A stretch of 44,752 bases of DNA, from positions 186,001-230,752 of the forward strand of contig JAXLNO010001097.1 in assembly GCA_038087875.1 (NCBI GenBank), written 5' to 3'. Both the position numbers and the translations under genes were made by a program. The notes under the pieces are model-generated. The model searched no databases, was not told the DNA's origin, and worked only from the letters and a program-made list of their open reading frames with translations. Source of the DNA: Malacoraja senta (lineage: Eukaryota). Below, one piece after another: positions 1,401 to 44,752 of this stretch; positions within the stretch are counted from its first letter, which is position 1, and each line of letters opens with the position of its first letter.

Positions 1401-2017
1401 ATTGAATCAATAGTATTGAATCATACATTGCCAGAACAATACATTTTCATGCTGTGATTTGACATTTTTCACACAAAAAAGGCCAGGAAAGCTCTTTATA
1501 TAAAGTAAATTTATATAATAAAAGTAAAACTTTTACTTTTTACTAATAATTATGTCTTTTGATGATATGATCTGCATTGAAACATAAAAGGATGTTTCAA
1601 TGTGAATTCTTTCTCCTTATCTGTATTGTAGCATAAACAAAGATGTTCAAAACAAAGGTAGATAAAATGCTGGAGAAACTCAATGGGTGAGGCAGCATCT
1701 ATAGAGTGAAGGAAAACAAATGTGCTTGCTGATCCTTTTATTTTATTTATATTTATTTATATTTATCATGGAGGGTGTATAGGGACATAAGGCATCAAAT
1801 GCAGAAAATCAACAGAGCGCCCCATCCCACCCCTCTCTCATCTTCCATACCCCTTTTTGCCGTGCAGGCTACAGCTCATGGCATAAAACTAGCATAGTGG
1901 ATAAAAACAGGATGACTAATGGAGAAGGGAAGGGGGCCCAAAAGAAACTTTGTACCCACTGATAAAATTCCTGTGAGGCCCTGCGTATACACGCACAAAC
2001 AGTGTGTGTTGTGAACC

Positions 2018-3905
2018 ATGTCTTCCAAGACGCGCACGTATAGTGAAACATTTCTCAAGTTCGGCTTCACAAGCATTGTTCCAAATCCGTGGTCAAGCCG
2101 CAATGTGTTCTCTGTGCCAAGGTTTAGAGTCACGAGAGCATGAAGCCCAGCAAACTGAAGATCCATTTGGTGTCTTGTCACAGCAACCTGGCGGGGAAGA
2201 GCGTGGACTCTTTCAAACGAAAAGAAGCCATACTCAAGGGTTCCCGCATCTATTCAACGGGTCACTCGCTCATCAAAATGAAGCAGCGTTGCAGGCTTCA
2301 TACCGGATTGCTTATCGAATCGCACAGACTAAGAAACCTCACAGCATCGGTGAAGAGCTTATCAAGCCATGCCTTCTCGAAACAGCGAAGTTGGCGCTGG
2401 GGGAAGAGCAGTCAAACAAGTTCAGGCAGATTTCCCTTTTGAATGACACAGTCAAAAGTAGAATCTCGGATATGAGTAATGATATTCTGCTGCAAGTAGT
2501 GAGGGCTGTGACGAGCAGTCCAGTGTATTCACTGCAACTGGGCGAGTCAACAGATGTTGCCTCATGTTCCCAACTGCTAGTCTACATTCGTTACCTCGAT
2601 GGAGTAGCCATGACGGAGGAGTACATGTTCTCGGAGCCATTGGCTACTACCACTCGGGGAGAAGATGTGTTCAGAATGCTGGAAGCCTTCCTCATCAAAC
2701 ATGAGCTTGGCTGGAAATGCCTTGTTGGGATGTGTACAGATGGGGCACCTTCCATGGTCGGTTGCAGATCCGGTTTCCAAGACTTCGTGAATGATGTCGC
2801 TCCACATGTCTCCTTCCCCCACTGCATGATACATCGCTATGCTTTAGCGATGAAGACTCTCCCTCTTGGTCTTCGAGAAGTGCTTTCAGATGTGGTGAAG
2901 ATTGTGAACCACATCCGAGAGAGTGCAACAAACTCAAGAAACTTCAAGCGATGTGTGAAGAAATGGGCGCCGATTTCACTATTCTGTTATTCCACACAGA
3001 GGTGCACTGGCTTTTGCGTGGTAAAGTTCTCAATCATGTGATTCAACGTTGAGAGGAAATAGTGTTGTTCTTGGAGAGAAGGGGTACTGAGAAGGAGAAT
3101 CAGCTTCATGAAAAGATGCAAGTTGAACTGTTTGTGATGAAGGTTGCTTACTTGGCTGACTTCTTCGCTGAGGTGAATTCCTTGAACCTGTCGCTTCAAG
3201 GAATCCTCCCAATGGCAAAGTGGCAGCATTCAGGAGGAACCTTTACCAGAGAAGAGTCCAGGACGGTGACATGGCTATCTTCCCTGAGATGATGACTCTC
3301 CTGGATGCTATGCCTGATGCTGAATGCCACTTCCACGAGGAGATCTCAACCCACCTTCTGGCAATTAGTGAAGCCATCGAACGTTACTTCCCCAGACTGG
3401 ACGACCGCTCTCGTGATGAGTGGATGCTCTGACCCTTTTCCGTTGAAGACGGTGGCATCAGCAATACTGACGTGACCGAAGGTTGAATTTTACTGAATTC
3501 GTGAAGATGCGCAACTCAAGAGTGACTTCATGGAACAAGAGCTCGCCACGTTTTGGCTGAAAGTGAAGGAATGTCCTGCTCTTTCGAAGAGGGCCCTGAC
3601 CCTATTGGTCCATTCCCCCTCAACCTCTCACTGTGAGGGTGGATTCTCAACTATGGTAACTCTGAAAACGAAGGTACGCAATAGGCTTGTGATCGACACT
3701 GACATGAGATGCTGCCTGTCGAGCATTCGTCCATGTTTTGATTGCCTGATGACTGCGAAGCAATTTCAGCCATCCCATTGACTGAGCATTGGCAGACATG
3801 TTTTAATAAATCGGGCTGTTTTTTTTCAAATTTTGTTTTAGAGGTCACGGTACTGATCAAGAATGCCTGATGGGGTCGTGGGGCCAAAAAGATTAAGAAC
3901 CACTG
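2018..3905 (+). mobile_element. Degenerate hAT (Buster/ZBED5/FAM200-like) DNA transposon; 3' end intact, 5' TIR missing
   Basis: Frameshifted transposase at 2018-3781 with BED finger (CVLC...MKPSKLKIHL), KPHSIGEELIKPC, SLQLGESTD, CTDGAPSM, HCMIHRYAL and CEGGFSTM. The terminus ...AAGAACCACTG (3905) is followed by CTCTAAAG, an NNNTANNN Buster-type target. Confidence 0.92.
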
Positions 3906-21358: not shown

Positions 21359-24300
21359 TTATGTTGTATGAAAGTGTTCAATAAATTTTCCCCAAGTCTT
21401 ATCAAATTTAACCAAGGGTTCAACAATGTCACTTCTGATTTTTTCTAAATTTAAACATGATATCGTTTCAGAATACCACTGGAGTGTGGTCGGAGGGTTG
21501 GAATCTTTCCATTTAATGAAAATAAATCTTCTGGCAATTAATGTGGTAAAAGCAATCAACCGATGGGCGGAGTGGGACAAATGAATAGGATCTAACATTG
21601 GTAACCCAAAAATTGCAGTAATAGAATGAGGTTGTAAATCTATACCTAAGACTACCAAAATAGTATCAAAAATATCTTTCCAATATTTTTCCAAAAGAGG
21701 GCAGGACCAAAACATATGGGTCAGTGATGCCACTTCAGAGTTACATCTGTCACAGGTAGGATTTATATGACCATAAAAACGAGCTAACTTATCTTTTGAC
21801 ATATGAGCTCTGTGAACCACCTTGAATTGTATCAAAGTGTGTCTTGCACACATTGAAGAGGTATTAACTAATTGAAGGATCCTCTCCCATTTCTCTATAG
21901 ATAAAGAAATTTGGAGTTCTCTTTCCCAGTCATTCTTAATTTAATCAAATGTATCTATTTGTAATTTTCAAATCAACTCATGTATAGTCGTTATTAATCC
22001 TTTCTGATAAGGGTTCAACTGTAAAAAAAAATCCAAGATTTTGGGTTGATGTGGTAGCGGAAAAAGGGGTAGTTCCTTTTGTCTAATTTGTAAATATCTA
22101 AAAAAGTGTGAATTAGGTAAGTTATTGGAGAGTTGTTCGAAAGACATAAAACAACACTCCAAAAACAAATCACGAAAAGCTACTAATCCCTTCCTCTTCC
22201 ATAACAAAAAAACTTGATCAGTACTAGATGGTTGGAAGAGAAATTTGGATAAAATCAGATAGTCCAAAAAACTTATGAAATTGAAACCGTATTCGGAACA
22301 TATGTCTTATTATTGGGTTCATCATATATTTATTCAATCTCGTAATTGTAAAAGGTAACGAGGTCCCTAGAATAGAAGCCAATTATAGCCCTTGTAAGGA
22401 ATCACGTTCTAGGTTTATCCATCCAGGGCATTGGGTATCTTCTAAATCTTTTGTCCAAAATGTTAAATAACGAACATTGACTGCCCAATAGTAGAGTCTA
22501 AGGTTCGGCAATGCCAAACCACCAACTTTTTTTGATTTCTGTAGGTATTTTTTACCTAGTCTGGCATTTTTATTCTGCCATATGTATGAAGAAATTTTAG
22601 TCTATAATATCAAAGAAAGGTTTGGCAATAAAAATTGGTATCGTCTGAAATAAATACAGCAATTTAGGTAAAATGAACATTTTAATAGCATTGATTCGGC
22701 CAATTAAGGATAAGGACATTGGTGACCATTTAGTGAACTGATGTTTAATATGGTCAATTAAAGGAATAAAATTAGCTTTAAATAAATCCTTGTGTTTCTT
22801 GGTGATCTTAATACCTAAATAAGTAAAACTTTCGGTAGTCAATCTAAATGGAAACTGTCCATAACTCGAAACAAAATTATATAATGGGAAAGCTCACTCT
22901 TACTAAGATTTAGTTTATAACCAGAAAAACTACTGAATTGATTAAGTAATGCTACTATTGCCGGAATAAATTTCTCAGGGTTAGAAATAAATAATAACAG
23001 ATCATCTGCATAAAGAGATAGCTTGTGTGTCTTATTCCCGCGGACAATACCAAAAATATTAGGGGATTCCCTAATAGCAGTGGCTAAAGTTTCCAAAGCA
23101 ATATCAAATAGTAAAGGACTTAAGGGACAGCCCTGTCTAGTACCTTGAAAGAGCCTGAAAAAAGGGGATCTCTGATTATTAGTAAATACAGAAGCATGAG
23201 GTATAAGATATATCAGTTTGATCCAAGAGATAAATTTTGGACCAATCTTAACTTTTTCAAGTATATTGAATAAGTATTCCATTCTACTCTATCAATAGCC
23301 TTCTCGGCATCAAGTGAGATGACACTTTCTGGGGTTTTATTAGACGCTGTATATACAATATTTATTAATCTCGTAACATTAAAGAATGAGTAACGATTTT
23401 TAATAAAACCTGTCTGATCTTCAGAGATAATTTGCGGTAAAATCTTTTCCAATCTCATAGCTAATATTTTGGAAAGAATTTTAAAATCTACTTTTAACAG
23501 TGATATAGGTCTATATGATGTCACTTCAGTAGGGGCTTTATCTTTTTTTTTAATTAAAGAAATAGATGCTTCATAAAAAGATTGTGGTAATCTATTCCTT
23601 AAAAAGGCTTCTTTAAATACCTTGCATAGCCATGGAGACAATAAATTTGAGAAATGCTTTAAAAATTCTACTGTAAACCCATCTGAACCGGGAGCTTTAC
23701 CAGAATTCATTGAAAAAATTGCTTTCTGTATTTCTTCCGTGATGGGTTCATCTAACAACAGAGACTCATTGTATGGTAAATTTGGTAAGTTCAGTTTCTT
23801 TAAAAACTCATGCATTATATTGGAATCAGTAGGAAAATCTGATTGGTATAGGGAGGTATAAAACTCCTGAAAGGATTTATTAAGTTCGTCATGGTCTACA
23901 GTTACTGTACCATCCCGTTTACACACTTTTGTAATCTGACGCTTGGCCAACACTGCTTCAATTGATTAGCAAGTAATTTACCAGATTTTTCGCCATTTAT
24001 ATAAAATTGAGTTTTGGTTTTAAGTAACTGGTTCTCAATCGGTGATACTAATAACAAATCATATCTCAATTGAAGTTCAACTCTATTCTTATAGAGCTCT
24101 AAACTAGGAGCTTTTGAATATTTTGTATCAATTTCTTTAATCTCGTCAGCCAATGTGCGTATTTCTTTTTGTGTTTGTTTTTTTAATCCCGCGGAGTATG
24201 AAATAATTTGTCCACGAATATATGCCTTAAAAGCATCCCAAACTATACCATTGGATATCTCTTCATTAGAATTTGTCAAGAAGGCTCCAATACCAACTAT

Positions 24301-25702
24301 AAATATGTGGATTTCAAATATGTTTGAAACATTACACCTAGAAGAGATAAGACTCCTCCTAGCAGGTAAACCAGATCACTTCCACCTGACGTGGTCTGCA
24401 TTTATAGAATTATTACAAACATAGGGTGCAAAAGTACTTTAAAAAAAATAAAAAATTGTGGTCAGGTAAGGGGGGATGATAGTTGAAGAGTTGGTATGTC
24501 CTATTTACGTAATGCTCAAAAAAAAATTGTTTTCTTTTTTTTTTTTTCCTCTCTCTCTTTCTCTTTTTTTTCCTAGGGCCTATTTCTTAACTCTTTTTCT
24601 TTTGTTTTTAATTTCGCTCTTATAGGGTCTTCGTCCTTTTTTGTTGTTACATTTTCTACACTTATCTACACTTTCACTTTTTCCTTCACTTTCTTCTTTC
24701 TTTCAATCTTTTCCTTTTCTAGTGTAAAAAAATAAATAAAGGGAGTACATTAATTGTAAGAAGATATAAATGACGAGTATTAATGTATGTGGTTGTAATG
24801 TAATGTACTTCTAATAAATAAAAATTTAAAAAAAAAAAAATTTTTAAAAGAAAAAAAAGAAAAAAAAAAAAAAGAATTTGTCAAGAAGTAAAAAGCAATC
24901 TGATCTTTCATAAACTTAATAAAGTTTAAGTCTTGAAGCAAAGTAGCATTAAATCGCCATTGTTTAGCACTAAACTTGGAATCAGGTAGTTTGATCAATA
25001 GTTTCACTGGTGCATGATCAGAAATAGCAATTGTATCATACTCACATGCAATGACCGATGGAACTAGCCGAGAATCTAGTATAAAATAGTCGATCCTAGA
25101 ATAACTATGATATACATGAGAGAAAAATGAAAATTCTTTGTCATTTGCGTGTAAGAATCTCCAAATTTCTAACATTCCCGAGTCAAGTAAAAAAGAATTA
25201 ATAAAATTAGCTGATTTATTTGGAAGCACATGATCAGATGTAGACCTATCAATCGAGGGATTCAAACAGCAATTGAAGTTTCCACCCATTATTAAAAAGT
25301 GTTCATTTAAATTGGGAAAGGATGCAATTAACTGTTTAAAAAACTCAGGGTGATCAATATTTGGTGCATAGACATTCACCATATGACTTTTTGCCTATAA
25401 AGGACACTGGTAATCACCAAGAATCTGCCATATGGATCAGAAATTGTTTCATGGTGAACAAACGGAATTGAGGAGTCAATAAAAATAGAGACTCCTTTCA
25501 CCTTAGCCTGTGAATTTGAATGAAACTGCTGTCCTCTCCAAAACTTGAAAAATCGTGACTTGTCATCTTGCCTTACATGAGTTTCCTGAACAAAGATAAT
25601 CTGAGCATTTAGTCTGTGAAGAACTTTAAAAATATATTTCCTCTTAATGGGATGGTTCAAGCCATTCACATTTCATGAAAGGAAATTAGTAACTTTATCC
25701 AT
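21359..25702 (-). pseudogene. L1 ORF2p (APE endonuclease plus RT), multiple stops and frameshifts, split by the nested L1
   Basis: FLS*NVNGLN, FVQETH, NVYAPN, GGNFN, SRIDYF, SDHAPV, KAPGSDG, SLDAEKA, GTRQGCPLSPLLF, LYADD, CARHTLIQFK, HMFWSC. Confidence 0.92.
24284..24872 (+). mobile_element. 5'-truncated L1 of a different family nested in the L1 ORF2
   Basis: ORF2 C-terminus (PTINMWISNMFETLHLEEIR...TWSAFIELLQT*), 3' UTR, AATAAA and poly(A). Perfect 16-bp TSD AGAATTTGTCAAGAAG at 24268-24283 and 24873-24888. Confidence 0.93.
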
Positions 25703-26284
25703 ATTGCTTGTAAAAAATCATGTGGGATGTAATGGGTTAATTTCTTGAAGCCTAAAAGTTCATAATACTGGAAGAAGAAAAATCTAGGGCGGAGCCAGAA
25801 GTGACGATATTTCAGCCAATTTTGTAGTTCAGAAATTGCACAAATGGAGATCACAAAATAGGGAACAAAAGACCCCTCCCCCCTCCCCCCTCCCAGCCCT
25901 GTAGAACCCCAAACTGACCAAAAGACAGTCAGCAAACTACCTAATCCCCTCCCCAATCCCATCTCTCCCAGTAACAGCGCTCAGCATAAAATGAATAATA
26001 TTTAACCACTACGTCATAACACATTTGTTATTATCTCTTTGAGAGAGAGAAGGAAAAAAAATACAGACTGGCATGGAATGATGCTTATTATTATCCAAGG
26101 TCAAGATATGAAAAACAAGAACTGCGTTCTCTTAGTTTGTCCAACGACAGGGGAACACGAATTAACAAAGAAATTCTTAAAAGAATATATATAAAAGAAA
26201 AACAACACGTCCAGTTAAATTCTTAATCATTATCAAACGAAATGTTGTCAAAATAGGAACAGTAAATCTCCAATTATAACTTAA

Positions 26285-27168
26285 TCAGCTATCAATTACT
26301 CCCCTTCCTCGTCGTAGCTCTTCAGACGCAGCTGGAGGCGTCTTGAGGACTGTTAAAAAATCGAAAGTTACCATTGAAAAGCCGAATACGCAATCTAGCT
26401 GGTGATAATAAAGCTGGGCGCCGTTTTTCTTATATAAATCAGACATTACATAATAAAACGTCTTTCTTATTTCCAAAAGCTCGTAACTATAATCAGGGAC
26501 AAACCGAAACTTACATCCTTCATATTCAACCACACCCAAATTTTTTGCTGCCTGGAGAATATTCTCCTTCATTTGAAAAAAATGAAACCAAATGATCAAG
26601 TGTCTCGGTTTATTACTGGATTTCTTCCCAATCCTGTGTGCGTTATCCATGAATGGAAGGTTTTCATTGTGCTCAATGTTGAATGTTTCCTTTATCATTT
26701 TAGAAGCATATTTTATAACGTTATTTCCTTCTTGGCCTTCCGGCAAACCAACAATTCGTCAATTCAAACGATGGCTTCTGTTTTCTAAGTCCATATTTTT
26801 AGACTTGTATTGCTGAAGTGCTCGAGTGTTTTATTCATTCTCCGTTCCAATTTTTCAATCTTCAAATCTCTCTCCTGTCCCAGGGTGCACAAGATATCAA
26901 TTTGATCCTTTTGTTCACGAAGTTCATCTTGTAACAAAGACAGTTTTCCTTGGACTTCCTTCAATTTGGTCGAAACTCCTTTCACCATTTCTTCCAAACT
27001 GCCAAATCTTGATTTCATTTCATTTTTCAGCTCATTTTTCAATTCATCGTTCATTTTCGATATTGCTTCTATGATGCTGGAATCAGAAGCTGCAGCTGTG
27101 GTTGTGGCTTTCCCCGGTTCCTTCTTTGGGGATCCTCCTTTCCTTCTTGTCTCCATCCTTTTCACCAT
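26285..27168 (-). pseudogene. L1 ORF1p (coiled coil plus RRM), disrupted
   Basis: MVKRMETRRKGG...coiled coil...GMPEGQEG...DNAHRIG...PRHLIIWFH...FRFVPDYS. Confidence 0.85.
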
Positions 27169-28500
27169 TAAGGCGTGTAAAAGTGTTATCAACACTTTAT
27201 GAACAGTTAGACGGTGTCTTGAAGTCAAATAGTCACCAGTAACATTGAACGAGTGGTCAGTGGAAGTTAAAAGTTAAGGGAGCAAACGAGTTTGCAACCT
27301 TACAGCATGCTGCCTTACACAAGGAGAGTCTAGTTATTGACATGTTATTGATGTTCATGATTATTCTGTTCTTTGTGCCTGGCCATTTTGACTTTGTCAC
27401 ATTTTACTTGGTTTATGATATTGTACAAGATTTGCAATCACACCTCCCAATTGACTAAAATTATCCCAATTAACTAAATGCCTACTATGGCATTTAAATT
27501 ATTGCATTATATTCAGTGCAGGGTAGAAGCTGCAGTTTTTAAAAAGGGCAAGTTTTTATTACATACTATGTGGTGTGTGCCTGGAAAGCACTGCCAGGGA
27601 TGGTGGCGTCTGGGGTGCACCTTCGTGGGTGCATGGAAATGCAGGGGTTTGAGGGACATGAATCATTTGCAGGCAGATGCTGCCGAACTGGTGTCTGTCC
27701 GACTGATCTGGAGGGATCTGATGGTCAGGCAGGGAATATTTCCAGTGACCCAATGGTGCTGAGTTCGTTGAATTTTACAGTGAATGGGAATGCCCCTGTA
27801 ATAGAGGAACAGGTCCTTTGTCCAACAACGTTTGTGCTGAACATGACGCAACCTGAGGCAGAGTGGCGCTGCTGATAGAGCTGCTGCCTCAGTGCGTCAT
27901 ACACATCAGATCAATCCTAACCTCGCTTGTCGGCTGTGTGAAGTTTGCATGTATTCCCTATGACCGCATGGGTTTCCACTGTCCTCCAGTTTTCACACAC
28001 TTACTAAAGATACCAGGTTTTATGGGTTAATTGGTCTCTGTAATTTGACCCTAGTGTGGAAGCGAAAGTTAGATAACATAGAACTTGTGTGAACGAAACT
28101 ATTTGAAGGAGTATTGAGTTTTTTGTTTAGTTTAGAGAGAGAGCATTGAAACAGACACTTCGGTCCCACTGAGTCCGCACCAACCAACGATCACCCACAT
28201 AAGCTAGGGACACAAGTCAATTAACCTACAAACCTGCACATCTGTCTTTGGAATGTGGGAGGAAACTGGAGCACCTGGAGAAAACCTATGCAGTCACAGG
28301 GAGAAGGTACAAATTCCGTACAGACATCACCCGTGGTCAGGATCAAACCCAGGTGTCTGGCGCAGTGCCTTTATATCTGGAAGGAAGATGTTATGTGGGA
28401 TGAATCAACAGTTAAAGCGAATAAACTAGTTGCATCTTTCTGAGTTCTGTTCTCTGCTATGCCATTTCTTTGTTGTCTAATATTTAATTTCCCTCCTCAG

Positions 28501-30991: not shown

Positions 30992-31931
30992 TTATAATGG
31001 GGGATTTAATACTGTATCCCGCACGGCATTACCAAACCCTCTGAGATCTTTAATCTCCTTGTGGTAATACTTGTGAAACATCTGTTCACTTGCCCATCCT
31101 GCGGCCGCGAGAATAAGGTCTATTGTCTGAATCCCTGGCCGCTGATGTTGATGCCGCCCTGGTGGAATGAGATTTAAATTTATCAGTATCAATACCTGAA
31201 TATCTCAACACCTGTTTCAACCATCGTGAAATTGTTTGTGTTGACACTTTCTTATGAGGCTTTTTATGACTAATAAAAAATGCCAATTCGGCGCCTCTTA
31301 AAACTTTTGTTGTTTCTATGTAACATTTCACATATGTTACTACACACAGTCGTGGATCTGTAGGATATGCTAAAAATTCCAACTTGCATCCTGTGAACCC
31401 AGGTCTACTTTGCTTCAGTAAATCATAGACATAGAATGTCACGGCATTTTGCCCTACTTTCATTCTATCAATTCTGAGTTTCTGTAATGTGTGAACTCTC
31501 TGTGCTGAAACTAATGCCATGAGCATAACCAATTTCATGGTAATTTTGGATAATGACAGAGTTTCAACTGGATTCCAATTCCTTAGGAACATCAGTACAT
31601 CTTTTACATTCCAAATTTCTGTATACCTGGGTCTGGGAGGATTAGAGTTGAAAATTCCTTTCATAAACCTACAGACCCAAGGATGTGCTCCAATTGGAGT
31701 TTGTTCTGATTCACTGCTTAAATATGCAGAGAGTGCACGTCGTGCAGTATTAATTGCACTATAACTTAATTTCAATTCATAGTGTAGAGTTGAAAGAAAC
31801 TCTATTACATCTGAAATTTCTGCTGTGTTATATGCAATATTCTTTCCTGAACAAAACACCTCCCATTTCTTTATATAGGAAATGTACTGCTTCTGGGTAC
31901 TATTCCTCCAGGCTGCTGTCATAACCTCCAC
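30992..31931 (-). pseudogene. DIRS tyrosine recombinase, frameshifted near the C-terminus
   Basis: SAQR (R), HSTR (H-x-x-R), then AAAGW and KYY in the adjacent frame (ORF 30992-31192). Confidence 0.92.
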
Positions 31932-31969
31932 CGTACGGTCTGATAATCCTTTTCCAAGATATGCCTTCT

Positions 31970-33960
31970 TAGAATCTGCAAATCAACAAACCAATACGAT
32001 TATGTAAAGGATGTGATTCATTAGTCACAGGGTGTACAAGCAGTTTAATCTGCTTTGGAATAACCATAAGGGGGGTTTTGGGTTTTTTCCCCCCATTTTT
32101 AACACCAGTGGATACCACACGTGTGTAGGCCAATCTGGTACTACCAAAATCCCTGAGGCTGAATCTTGTTTAATTTTCTGTATGCATTTGTGGATTAAAC
32201 AAAATGGTGGAAACGCATACAGAAACATACCACCCCAATGTAGCGAGAAAGCATCCACCACTACTGCACCAGGATCAGGTTCCCATGACACATACTTAGG
32301 CAACTGGTGGTTCAATCTTGATGCAAACAGATCAATTTCTGGCATTCCAAATTGTGTCATAATTTGTGTGAATATTTTCCGATTTAACATCCATTCTGTA
32401 TTATCATTAAATTTATGTGATCTTTTGTCTGCAATTGTATTAATTTTTACCTGGTAAATATTGCTGACAGCCACATTTTTCTGGCAATACCCCAGGTCCA
32501 AATTTCATTTGCCAATTTATCACATGATTCTGATTTTATACCACCCATGTGATTTATGTATGCTACAGCTGTAGTATTGTCAACCTGTACCTGAACATGC
32601 ACATTTCCCATATCAGTGCAATAAGCTCTAAGGCCGTAAAATGCGCCTAATAGCTCTAGGTAATTGATTCCCAGTTTTTCCAGCAAAGGTACTTCATTCA
32701 CATTCCACCTACCTCCACAGCTGGAAATCATGTTAGTAGCGCCCCAACTCAGCGCACTTACATCAGTCTGTCGAGTGACGGAAGGTGTTTCTACCAGAAC
32801 TTTTCTGGAAGCATTAGAAACATTGTTAATCCACCATTCTATTTCTGTAATGGATTGAATTGTTAATTTCATGGGCCTATCAAAATGCCCTCTATTCATT
32901 TTTAACGCTTGTACCTTAGCTCTCTGTAAACATTGATAATGCAATGGTCCAAACGTGACCGCTGGAAACCCTGCAATTAATTTGCCTAGCAAGCTTGCCA
33001 CTTCTCTAATTGAAGATGTGTCCTCGTTAATGAGTTTTATGCAACCTTCAATTAACTGCAGCTTTTTATCTTTTGGCAAAGTGATTACCATGTGTTCGGA
33101 GTTAATTGTGAACCCTAGGTAATCAATCTTTTTGCTTGGTAACAATTTAGATTTTTGTAGGTGAATAATGAAACCTAATTTCTCAAAATGTATTTGACTG
33201 GATACTGACAATTTTGCAGCAGCCAAAGTGTCCCCTACAATGAGGATATCATCTAAATAAGCCATTAATACATGGCCCTCAGCTCTTAACAGAGCTAAAA
33301 TTGGTTTGAGCAATTTAGTGAATAATCTTGGTGCTGAAATCAGACCATTGGGCAATGCTTTAAATTGCCATAACTGACTCATCCATCTAAATTTCAAATA
33401 TCTTTGATCATTACCATGCATTGCCACAGAATAATATGCATTTTGCAGATCTATGCTTGCCTTGTAGCAATTCTTTGTGACTAGCTAAATGGCATTAGTA
33501 AATGTTTCCATTTTGAAATGTTTCTATTGTACATAAAGGTTAAGATTTGTCAGATCGGAAATGATTCTACGTCCACCATCCCTTTTCTAGGAGAATATTC
33601 CTAGGAGAATATTTGACACAAACTGATGGTGTTGTTCTACTGACATTTATATCATCCTTTTCTGCATAACATTTTTCAATTCTCCTTTGATCTACCCATT
33701 CTCTTCCTTTGAAAAAAATCTGTGACCAGTTTGAATTATGCTGAATTGGAGGATCCAAAAGTGGAGAGAACTCAATTTTGAATCCAACAATGCTACATAG
33801 AATAAATGAATCATTTGTTATTGATTGCCATTCTTTTAGGAAGAATCGTAACCTTCCCCCTATTTGTGAGTGTGAAACATTTGTTGTGTTTCTTACCAGA
33901 CCAAGCCCCCTAACCTCAGGGTTTGCCACCGGCAGTTGTTGTCCCCTTCTAGTAGGCACA
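31970..33960 (-). pseudogene. DIRS pol: RT, RNase H and Dam-like methyltransferase domain
   Basis: GGRLRFFLKEWQSIT; KASIDLQNAY; FKALPNGLISAPRLFTK; AYLDD; RH motifs TDVS, INYLELL, DNTTAVAYIN; MT motifs IDLFASRLN, DAFSLHW, YAFPPF, LVVPDWP. Stops and frameshifts are present. Confidence 0.93.
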
Positions 33961-41774: not shown

Positions 41775-42328
41775 TGTGAGATGCAAAATCACAAACGCTT
41801 TTAGAGGCAAAGTCGGCAAAGAAGCTTTTTATTTAAATCATATTCTGCAGAATAGGTGCCTCTCCTCTGATGTCCCCTAGAGGCACACCAAGGATCGGGA
41901 TATCTTCTATCTTTATACATTTCATGGGTATCATTGTCACACCCTCATCCCTCCCCATTGAGCTTCTTCCAATCATAACATAAAGCCCACATTCCCACGA
42001 GAACGTCCTGGAACGTCCACCCGACGTCAAAGACACCTCCCATATCATGCATCGCATGTGCATTTAAATTAGGCATCTTGTCATAGTGGCTGTGTGTACA
42101 TATTCATGTAAGTTCATTAGGCATGCACAGATTTGTTTGACCTTATGTACTTTCTCTCTTTCTACTTCTCAAATCTTCTGCTGAATTTGCTACCTTTTAT
42201 CTAGAATTTCTCTCTGTTCTATATATCGTTATTTTCTATTTTACCAGCAGTCTGGCTTCTGCTGACACCACAAGCCATTTTTCTATCCCTAGTATAAATC
42301 AACCATGTCTGTTAACTCTTTCCTCACA
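41775..42328 (-). mobile_element. ERV 3' LTR (554 bp)
   Basis: TGTGAG...CTCACA inverted termini; PPT (AAAAAAGAAAAGGGTGG) just upstream; TATAAA at 41912-41917 and AATAAA at 41828-41833 on the minus strand. Confidence 0.9.
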
Positions 42329-44272
42329 ATCCACCCTTTTCTTTTTTGCTATGCAACCTTTGATTTATACTATCTTCCTTTTCTAATGCTAGCAGCAGAT
42401 TCTTCGCCTCCCTATCCCCCTCTCGTTGGTTATACTGTGTTCTGAAGGCCATCATGGTGGCGGCCCTGTTCTTTGTCAGGGCTGTTTCTATCAATCGCTG
42501 AGCCAATCCCCGTACGCAGGGAATCATACAACATCCGAACAAACACAGTAACCCCACCATGACTACCACTGATGTTAGAGCTGAGGTAAAGATGTGCTTC
42601 CATTTCCCAAACCAGGATTCTAGAAACCCAGTCCAGGAGTTGTCTACTCCAGAGTTCTCAGCCAATTCGATAGTCAGAGAGGTGAGACCTGCTAGGGCTC
42701 TTGACACTGACCCATCCGGAGCAGTGTTGTTGGGGATGAATGTGCAACATTGTTCGCCAAACATTACACACACCCCTCCCTTCTCAGCCAGTAGCATGTC
42801 CAAGGCCATGCGATTTTGCCAGGCCATTTGGCTGGTAGCTGTCAGTTGTTCCGCTAATCCTTCAACTGCATCTCGAGTGTAATTTATAAAGCGTTGTTGA
42901 TTGTAGTATAGGTAGTTGATCCAGTCCACATTTTTATTAATTGTGGACCACCAGAAGAGCATGGACTCAAAGCCCGCAGCTATCTGGTTTCTGGCTTTGA
43001 ATTCATCGGGTACCCCTCTTGTCACCCCTATCGCATCTATATATATATGTGTGTGTCGAATGATCCTTTCACCCCTCTCTTTTGTCGTTGGCTTCCTTCA
43101 TTGAGTTCTACAGCATGTTCTACTGCTATGGTGAAGGGCATCATCAGTTGTGTGAGGGTACAGGTTCCCGTCCATGACCCCAGTAACCGGGGCCACAGGG
43201 TATTCTCCCCGCACCACCACCAGACATCGGCTCTACTGACTATCTGTTTTTTTAGCCAGGAGCTATTGAACAGTGGTCCCTGTTCCTCAGCCGTTATGTT
43301 ATACGTCTGATTGCAGTTGAGCACCTTCCCCATATCCTGTCCCTCTGGGTTATTTCTTGTATAGCACTCAAACCCCTCCTCCCCAAGAGGACTGGTAAAT
43401 GGAGGAGGTCGAGGGTCTTCCCTTCGGCCCTTCATATTGTTGTTGCTGGTCGGAAATAGGTAATGATAACTCTGGCATATCACATTCTTTGGTAAGAGGG
43501 GATTCGTGAATAGCTGTAGTATACATGACATAGCCCTAGGTGTTCTATTCCAATTCAGGGGAAATGGTACTGGGACCAGCTGAGGCCTAGCTCCGGCGCA
43601 GGTGTAACAATTGGTTCATTGCATACTTCTGGCTGTGTACATCATCCAGGCAAGCCAGGTGTTGGCTCCTTTTCCCCCTGTTGGTATTCCCTTCTCATAT
43701 AACTGCCTTAATCCTGTTTCTCCTTCTACTATCATTATCTTCAGATCCTTAGACTCATTCTCCCTGGTGACTTTGCTGACTACCGGTGGTGCTGGTGTTG
43801 CCCCGGGATCCCTATTCTGACTGTCATCTATCTTCAACACCTTTCCCCTATCCTCATATCTTACCATCTCCCCATCCCGCTTCACTTCTATCTCAAACTT
43901 CAGACATGTGTCCTTCCCTGTTTTATCTGCACATATCCAATACCTACCACTTTCCTGCATTTGAACACTCTGTATGCTCACATATATACGTCCTGGCAAT
44001 TTCTCGTTCGGGTTTTGATATATTTTCCACCTATCAGTTTGATAGGTGGTTCGATGCCACCCATCTCTTGATGAAGTAAACACCGCGTGCCAATTTCTAC
44101 AGGGATGGGTGCATACATACATTCTATAGCCACACCACCATTTTCCTTTACATACATTAAATGGGATGGTGGTGGACCTTCTATTCTGTGGTATTGTGAT
44201 TTTTATGCATGTTATATTACTCACGAGTTGGGTAACCACCCAACACACGGCCCACCAACACGAAATCTTCAT
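42324..44272 (-). pseudogene. env: Gamma-type retroviral envelope (~648 aa if repaired) with an N-terminal Ig V-like domain
   Basis: Signal peptide MKISCWWAVCWVVTQLVSNITC; SU CYTC (CxxC); furin site RQKR; ISD QNRMALDMLLAEKGGVC; CX6CC; TM anchor. One in-frame TGA (43616-43618) and one +2 shift (about 43040). Confidence 0.95.
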
Positions 44273-44577
44273 TTTTCCCGCGGGTTCTTGGTAAATATTA
44301 AAGTCAATGGTTCCTCTCCTTTGCGCACAGTCCACGGGCTGATATTGTCTGGTGGGGCCTCCACAGGACCCTTAACTCGACTTGCGTGTGTCCACCCTTT
44401 CTCTTTTGTTCGCACTGCCGTCTCGGTGATTAGTAACACCAGGTAGGGTCCAGTCCACTTAGGTTGCAGCTTTTCTTCTTTCCACGTTTTTATTAATACC
44501 CAGTCTCCAGCCTTGACTGAGTGTATCGGGAAGTCCAGTGGTGGGCTCTGGGCCAGCAATCCTTTAATTTTAGTTCT
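44269..44577 (-). pseudogene. pol: Integrase C-terminal (GPY/F) remnant of pol
   Basis: GDWVLIKTWKEEKLQPKWTGPYLVLLITETAVRTKEKGWTHASRVK. Its TGA overlaps the env ATG (ATGA). Confidence 0.92.
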
Positions 44578-44752
44578 ATATCATGCATCGCATGTGCATT
44601 TAAATTAGGCATCTTGTCATAGTGGGTGTGTGTACATATTCATGTAAGTTCATTAGGCATGCGCAGATATGTTTGACCTTATGTACTTTCTCCCTTTCTA
44701 CTTACTTCTCAAATCTTCTGGTGAATTTGCTACTTTTTATCTAGAATTTCTC
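44578..44752 (-). mobile_element. U3 portion of the ERV 5' LTR, fused directly to the integrase tail
   Basis: Matches 42042-42213 with 6 substitutions and one 4-bp indel. Confidence 0.9.

Follow-up and report, generated by a model that had tools for sequence, protein, structure and literature searches.

The receptor-binding domains (RBDs) with which the present locus is best compared belong to gamma-type retroviral envelope proteins (Env), the entry mechanism of which is described in the available sections of Hogan and Johnson (2023, PMC9967133). The RBD of EnvP(b)1 is a beta sandwich with some similarity to the V-type Ig fold, and the accessible text of McCarthy (2020, PMC7683403) treats the origin of its features as untraceable for want of sequence conservation, raises as a question the existence of equally compact RBDs, and reports for EnvP(b)1 no related sequences in non-primate genomes. 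IgV topology has been assigned both to this structure (6W5Y) and to 1AOL in the available part of the IgStrand study (PMC12051499). In the accessible portion of a 2024 preprint (Hotzel, bioRxiv 10.1101/2024.03.17.585361), the class was named RBD-C, with absence of the B-F disulfide as a class trait and with a tetrad of residues (Tyr119, Trp144, Trp154 and Asp217 in MLV) beside the Cys121-Cys141 bond, the Tyr-Asp pair forming a structural hydrogen bond under the two Trp. The same portion assigns the RBD of ZFERV, by modelling, to the Pb(1) type, sets out an Fc type that is compact, reports recent capture of SIRP as the RBD of alpha-like envs, and calls the host IgV donor of RBD-C unidentified; the terms pIgR, polymeric, CMRF35 and CD300 each occur 0 times in it. 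No statement of a CD300/pIgR origin for retroviral RBDs was found in the literature searched, a body of work outside which most subscription journals lie.

The window analysed here is a stretch of 44,752 nucleotides of Malacoraja senta (assembly GCA_038087875.1, contig JAXLNO010001097.1, positions 186,001 to 230,752), and its features of interest lie close to its end, where the contig terminates (Table 1). Our reading of the domain that heads its env gene, which we consider probable, is that of an N-terminal domain from an endogenous retroviral Env of gamma type, homologous to RBD-C of the EnvP(b)1 type and very compact, predicted to be IgV-like and likely descended, with its whole class, from an ancient host domain of CD300/pIgR type rather than recently captured. 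A first-pass annotation of the window had identified a 108-aa Ig-like domain heading a gamma-type env, after a signal peptide and before a proline-rich linker, WLAW and CYTC. Translation confirms this arrangement: the minus-strand segment is free of stops and yields the 108 aa quoted there, the start Met lies at 44272, and leader, domain, linker, WLAW, CYTC, furin site and TM follow in that order. The domain also sits, as had been claimed, at the receptor-binding position of SU, ahead of the CxxC-bearing C-domain to which a proline-rich linker joins it, as in RBD-C of the Pb(1) type. The frames downstream of the domain match Pfam TLV_coat (TM, E 2.8e-11), and the frame upstream of env matches the Pfam MLV integrase C-terminus (E 3.2e-11). 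All the marks of a gamma-type Env are present (CxxC in SU, a furin site, CX6CC and an anchor in TM), in a copy that is itself broken: a premature stop at 43616-43618, immediately ahead of CYTC, and a frameshift near 43040-43080, between SU and TM, leave it unable to encode a full Env, with the 108-aa domain intact. Elsewhere in the window are transposon remains (1977-3041; 21359-27273; 31086-33484), which we take to be a hAT-like transposase, a LINE-1-like element and a DIRS-like element with a tyrosine recombinase.

Table 1. Retroviral features near the end of the window, numbered from its first nucleotide
Feature	Position	Strand	Basis or remark
3' LTR, 554 bp, TG...CA ends, polypurine tract before the LTR	41775..42328	-	
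TM subunit: immunosuppressive motif, CX6CC, membrane anchor	42327..43075	-	off the SU frame after the frameshift
SU C-domain: WLAW, CxxC (CYTC) 43598-43609, furin site RQKR 43076-43087	43076..43750	-	
Linker, including proline-rich stretch 43778-43810	43751..43882	-	
Compact RBD-C (IgV-like receptor-binding domain) of SU, 108 aa	43883..44206	-	translation, fold prediction, profiles
env start codon and 22-aa hydrophobic leader	44207..44272	-	putative signal peptide, from position and hydrophobicity
pol 3' tail (integrase C-terminal domain), overlapping the env start	44269..44580	-	
LTR (U3) fragment fused directly to the integrase tail	44578..44752	-	gag and most of pol absent

The broken copy belongs to a family that is widespread in its host genome. 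At least 150 env matches were scored (from 375 candidates, at 72-100% identity), numbers that are not copy numbers because some matches are duplicate contigs of one insertion, and open env frames of 657-694 aa occur in 14 of the 150. The junction of LTR fragment and integrase tail is common to nine of ten other loci checked, the tenth having two whole LTRs. Target-site duplications of the element measure 4-5 bp, and its primer site is presumably similar to the one for tRNA-Pro in MLV. In 19 stretches of 10 kb, the two LTRs of a pair are 93-99.8% alike; one stretch still has gag, pro-pol and env in open frames, gag and pol being separated by a stop, and since its LTRs are 99.8% alike the family must have been active very recently. 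Pairwise dN/dS over 13 copies with open env is 0.37 for the domain (codon bootstrap 0.20-0.76), 0.30 for the SU C-domain and 0.23 for the TM ectodomain, estimates drawn from non-independent pairs of copies chosen for their open frames; evidently, the domain was constrained by purifying selection while the virus spread. Other env families of the genome are too fragmentary for comparison, and contigs from four sequencing runs that match env at 80-99% are uninformative about expression.

Several variants of the element accompany these copies. An abundant non-autonomous subfamily (L046-L050, L053, L057-L059) carries out-of-frame deletions that take out much of the domain and linker; a 394-aa open frame is kept in many of its copies, several also lack the membrane anchor, and some stand in tandem, about 5.9 kb apart. 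This subfamily was considered as a form of env predating any capture and was rejected as such, its out-of-frame deletion being derived and the remainder about 96% identical. Short elements of about 6.9 kb between LTR ends (L026, L030, L032, L033), with gag and pol largely replaced, have an env that is fully open and under purifying selection, and are possible env-donor or co-opted copies. On contigs C1715 and C2611, proviral copies form head-to-tail arrays with a spacing of about 8.1 kb.

Within the domain, the residues that define RBD-C can be recognised directly. It has six cysteines (positions 19, 25, 32, 36, 92 and 101), which probably pair as Cys32/Cys36 (C-C'), Cys19/Cys25 and Cys92/Cys101. 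The canonical cysteine positions of the B and F strands are occupied by Phe16 and Ile91, so the B-F disulfide is absent, a loss that had been noticed at the outset and that the accessible text of Hotzel (2024) gives as a trait of the class. The tetrad, as located by sequence, consists of Tyr30 (44117-44119), Trp39, Trp50 and Asp99 (43910-43912). With all four residues in place the architecture is therefore a known one, and its identity as RBD-C is held with high confidence. The IgV topology of RBD-C is already published; the donor signal discussed below seems to be new.

Assigning a fold to so short and divergent a domain depended on its relatives. The single sequence, and likewise near-identical copies of it, gave no Pfam V-set match and no meaningful PDB match, these searches yielding only a weak match to Herpes_gI (E 0.11), and AlphaFold run from 13 near-identical copies only reached a pLDDT of 40 with no significant fold match. 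AlphaFold2 with a 67-row virus-only alignment, in which three EnvP(b)1 orthologues and two canonical-V envs were included, produced a confidently predicted sandwich (pLDDT 87.9, pTM 0.80), and the top ESM Atlas match of the domain was a V-set cluster (0.90, 182 of 256 features), followed by an FCAMR-like cluster (0.88). The IgV fold proposed in the first-pass annotation is therefore borne out by model and atlas and finds no echo in single-sequence searches; we describe the domain as a predicted IgV-like sandwich. Foldseek placed 6W5Y first against the model (E 3.3e-6), then CD300lf, CD300a and pIgR, such that the CD300/pIgR proteins named by the annotation did rank high, behind a viral RBD. 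In the VIA comparison, the best 8 of 48,161 chains (Z 10.6-11.6, rmsd 2.1-2.8, 92-108 residues aligned) were seven pIgR/CD300 entries and 6W5Y, namely pIgR D2, CD300lf (two entries), pIgR D1, 6W5Y (Z 11.0, rmsd 2.7, 108 aligned), CD300a, teleost pIgR and sIgA-bound pIgR. When Foldseek's list was re-scored, CD300a led (Z 12.1), with TREM2 and CD33 at 11.1; TREM2, CD33/Siglec and VpreB all lie within about 1 Z of the CD300 matches. The MLV and FeLV RBD chains (1AOL, 1LCS) were not among the best 50 matches of the fold comparisons, and among the matches listed at E<=10 for a 67-row whole-env profile there was neither a chain of CD300/pIgR nor an RBD from MLV or FeLV; the link to MLV therefore rests on the published work and on the Pfam TLV_coat matches.

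The domain had been read as a host capture by this virus, a view that its relatives do not support. Searches with the conserved part of env (the C-half of SU plus TM) recovered 548 related envs, and the 120 listed span sharks, teleosts, bichir, frogs, birds, a marsupial and primates, including EnvP(b)1 itself (P0085, which matches the solved RBD 6W5Y at E 7e-93); the same domain heads shark, teleost, frog and bird envs, as it does EnvP(b)1 of primates. Of the 120, the 65 that have an N-terminal domain were aligned, and these domains correspond strand by strand with the query. Conservation at the query's columns is high for three cysteines (Cys19 57/65, Cys32 60/65, Cys36 57/65) and extends to the tetrad (Tyr30 57/65, Trp39 55/65, Trp50 49/65, Asp99 37/65) and to Arg59 (46/65), Gly87 (41/65), Tyr89 (41/65) and Gly97 (52/65), whilst the column of Glu85 holds Asp in 51 of 65. 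As the query shares the conserved residues of the family, the V-set-like motifs from which a host capture was first deduced are family traits. On a profile of 58 other, longer env domains, built without the compact ones, the query scores 21.6 bits (best of 1000 shuffles, 11.8), and the profile-profile probability (hhalign) is 97.6%; on a profile of CD300 exons from its own genome it scores 4.8 bits, a value reached by 8 of 1000 shuffles. Pfam TLV_coat matches extend into the region of the N-terminal domain in 4 of 28 relatives.

What distinguishes the query within this family is its size. It has 108 aa against a median of 141 among 58 complete relatives, of which P0067 alone is shorter; the Cys-Asn-Pro loop motif found in 37 of 65 relatives and the VRA/VRB expansions are absent, and the F-G hairpin carries an extra pair of cysteines, shared with P0056, the domain of which is about 30% alike. 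Three further envs of the same lineage keep canonical V-set cysteines in this domain: P0164 and P0176 (ENA) at both the B and the F position, and P0067 (Logan), whose domain clears the Pfam V-set threshold. In the domain tree, P0164 and P0067 lie outside the RBD-C clade, which would make them either forms like the ancestor or products of separate recapture of a pIgR-like exon.

Set against known systems, the domain is closest to the EnvP(b)1 RBD (6W5Y), with which it shares its env lineage by C-half tree, its position, homology by profile and by fold, and the lack of a B-F disulfide; it differs in its length (108 versus 144 aligned residues), in lacking the expansions and the loop motif, and in having the extra hairpin cysteines and the full tetrad. 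With the MLV and FeLV examples of RBD-C, and with the ZFERV model, it has in common IgV topology, the tetrad and the C-C' cysteines as the papers define them, whereas MLV and FeLV have long variable loops and an extra strand, and direct searches gave no match between them and the query. According to the accessible text on the Fc type (HERV-Fc), that type is likewise compact with VRA/VRB not discernible, but lacks the tetrad that the query has. The V domains of CD300lf, CD300a and pIgR (1ZOX, 2Q87, 1XED, 4NOF, 5F1S) are the best host matches by fold and by profiles of compact domains, and share with it Tyr-x-Cys on the C strand, the D-strand Arg, the acidic-x-Gly-x-Tyr motif and an F-G hairpin of the same length with Gly-x-Asp. 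Unlike them, the query has a shorter C-C' loop, is 15-21% identical and forms part of a viral env rather than a host receptor gene; as it lacks both the B-F disulfide and the C-strand Trp, it does not belong to the CD300 family. Finally, the SIRP-like RBD of alpha-like envs is also an IgV domain that heads a retroviral Env, but on the available description it was captured recently, shows identity at BLAST level and keeps the canonical disulfide, none of which applies here.

That precedent nonetheless frames the first alternative, in which the virus recently, and in its own lineage, swapped its RBD for a host CD300/pIgR-like exon. The V-set features of the domain, the FCAMR-like second match in ESM Atlas, the 23-29% identity to a teleost pIgR-like protein described below and the SIRP case are all in keeping with such an event. 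In a tree (LG+G4) built on 98 columns from 24 viral and 28 host rows, however, the query is nested within a 22-row viral clade that includes EnvP(b)1 (support 100/99); a separate capture of the query lowers lnL by 13.8 and is not rejected by the AU test (p 0.19). In a recent capture, host proteins would be the next matches and the canonical disulfide would be in place; the nearest relatives of the query are viral RBDs, its score on their profile far exceeds that on the CD300 exons of its own genome, and it shows features of RBD-C that are absent from CD300 (Phe and Ile at the B-F cysteine positions, Cys19, Trp39, Trp50). The CD300/pIgR-like exon cluster of the host, moreover, is only about 24% alike. 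We therefore regard a recent, lineage-specific capture as very improbable; any capture was likely ancient and shared by the whole RBD-C class. Of the host capture originally proposed, what survives is the resemblance to CD300/pIgR; a novel, virus-specific acquisition is not supported, the domain being the standard RBD-C of its env lineage, shared with EnvP(b)1.

The trees are less decisive about the donor. The branch joining RBD-C to the CD300/pIgR side has a support of only 84/91, and, besides separate capture, AU tests do not reject a single clade of all viral rows (p 0.49), nor an antigen-receptor (p 0.43), TIM (p 0.16) or B7/nectin/NKp30 donor (p 0.16); with none of five alternatives rejected on 98 columns, the donor is not proven by trees. 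In a quick tree of the C-half, the family of the query pairs with P0056 (95) and adjoins the clade (80) in which EnvP(b)1 is grouped with envs of sharks and birds, whilst compact domains are scattered over four places, a distribution compatible with an old state having been retained or with shrinking and recapture on several occasions. In the same tree, bird and shark envs (P0064, P0076, P0058, P0065, P0070) form a well-supported clade (99) with primate EnvP(b)1 (P0082-P0085), in contrast to the absence of non-primate relatives given by McCarthy (2020).

Evidence on the donor comes from the fold comparisons above and from profiles. A library-wide profile search with the domain gave 35 matches, of which one was a member of its own family and 33 were bacterial repeat proteins, discarded as artefacts with scores summed over many short stretches. 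The last, P0020, is a teleost five-domain pIgR-like protein (best PDB matches, pIgR) that is 23-29% identical to the query at a pairwise E of 3e-6, a value to be read in the knowledge that P0020 was found with this query. Used in turn as query, P0020 located a CD300/pIgR-like exon cluster in the host genome, which also carries Ig and TCR V exons and must therefore be that of a jawed vertebrate; the cluster is a large tandem array on contig C5 (0.67-1.74 Mb, L060-L095). The viral domain aligns to one of 30 such loci, about 24% alike at E 3.7, and thus no close host donor was found in its own genome. When six compact viral domains were combined into a profile, its matches were pIgR (E about 1e-12, a sum over several domains), teleost pIgR (9e-8) and CD300lf (1.5e-7), with antibodies far behind. 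Since P0067 and P0164, two members of this set, retain the canonical F-strand cysteine, the test was repeated with eight domains that lack it, leaving out EnvP(b)1 orthologues and the two canonical-V envs; both sets were selected by eye. This time the leading match was 6W5Y (3.9e-7), CD300lf ranked second (6.7e-4, 100 positions aligned) and antibody-type rows reached 0.012-0.016 at best; the F-G hairpin aligned to that of CD300lf ungapped, with Gly at +3 and Asp-Pro at +10/+11. P0164 alone, as query, has pIgR as its first match (E 3e-4).

Such rankings could also arise if RBD-C were an ancient IgV derivative of some other, or an unrecoverable, V-set family, with short loops and a convergent C-C' disulfide drawing it towards CD300/pIgR. 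The differences in Z between V-set families are under 1-1.5, no AU test is significant, and C-strand cysteines occur in TIM domains too. By hhalign, 64 viral domains together favour CD300-type exons (89%) over light-chain-like V (76%) and TIM, IgH, TCR and B7 (<=18%), but the 58 longer domains alone produce a tie (58.5% versus 56.3%). Against this stand the lead of CD300/pIgR in three different comparisons, despite thousands of antibody chains in the library, and the ungapped hairpin, whose Gly at +3 and Pro at +11 occur in 13 and 12 of 18 host CD300-type exons and in 1 of 33 other V exons each. On balance, another donor family is a real but lesser possibility, and a donor of RBD-C within the CD300/pIgR clan is given somewhat better than an even chance. 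The domain looks more like CD300/pIgR than like the other host families tested, and the annotation's choice of these proteins as its closest host look-alikes is upheld by Foldseek, VIA and the compact-domain profiles alike.

The resemblance to CD300lf extends to residues with a known role. In CD300lf, Lys94, Gly96 and Asp98 hold a metal, and Tyr34, the Cys36-Cys44 bond and Trp89 line a phosphocholine pocket (Nelson 2018, PMC6166816, available text). Tyr34, Cys36, Gly96 and Asp98 align to the Tyr, Cys, Gly and Asp of RBD-C, and in the query, by a mapping made through the profile and by eye, Tyr30, Cys32, Trp90, Lys95, Gly97 and Asp99 take the places of Tyr34, Cys36, Trp89, Lys94, Gly96 and Asp98. 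These six residues might suggest that the domain still serves for attachment by binding calcium and phospholipid as CD300 does, or acts as an immune decoy, instead of binding a protein receptor. This we think unlikely. Firstly, the cysteines of its putative C-C' pair stand 3 residues apart, as opposed to 7 in CD300lf, so that this wall of the pocket is missing, and with a C-C' loop four residues shorter a working lipid pocket is doubtful. Secondly, the corresponding Tyr-Asp pair of MLV is a structural hydrogen bond covered by two Trp (Hotzel 2024, accessible text). Thirdly, the CD300-like exons of the host itself mostly lack the F-G Asp (present in 2 of 18). By analogy with the biology of MLV and FeLV, and from its position and homology, the domain of open copies would instead be tethered through the proline-rich linker to the SU C-domain and would bind a cell-surface receptor; binding may then trigger isomerisation of the CxxC/CX6CC disulfide, followed by fusion through TM.

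The domain described here is a compact variant of RBD-C and a plausible missing link to an ancestor of CD300/pIgR type. A broader proposal, to which we attach an even chance, is that all type-C/Pb(1) RBDs (MLV, FeLV, EnvP(b)1, ZFERV) go back to a single V domain of the CD300/pIgR family, captured from an early jawed vertebrate, with the Tyr, the C-C' disulfide and the F-G Asp of the RBD as relics of the CD300 calcium/phospholipid pocket, and with compact fish-type envs and P0164/P0176 as missing links. The family offers RBD-C in a minimal form together with a pointer, at the level of sequence, to CD300/pIgR, through which the origin of the gammaretroviral entry domain becomes a testable question with a concrete prediction, that of a relic metal/lipid site.
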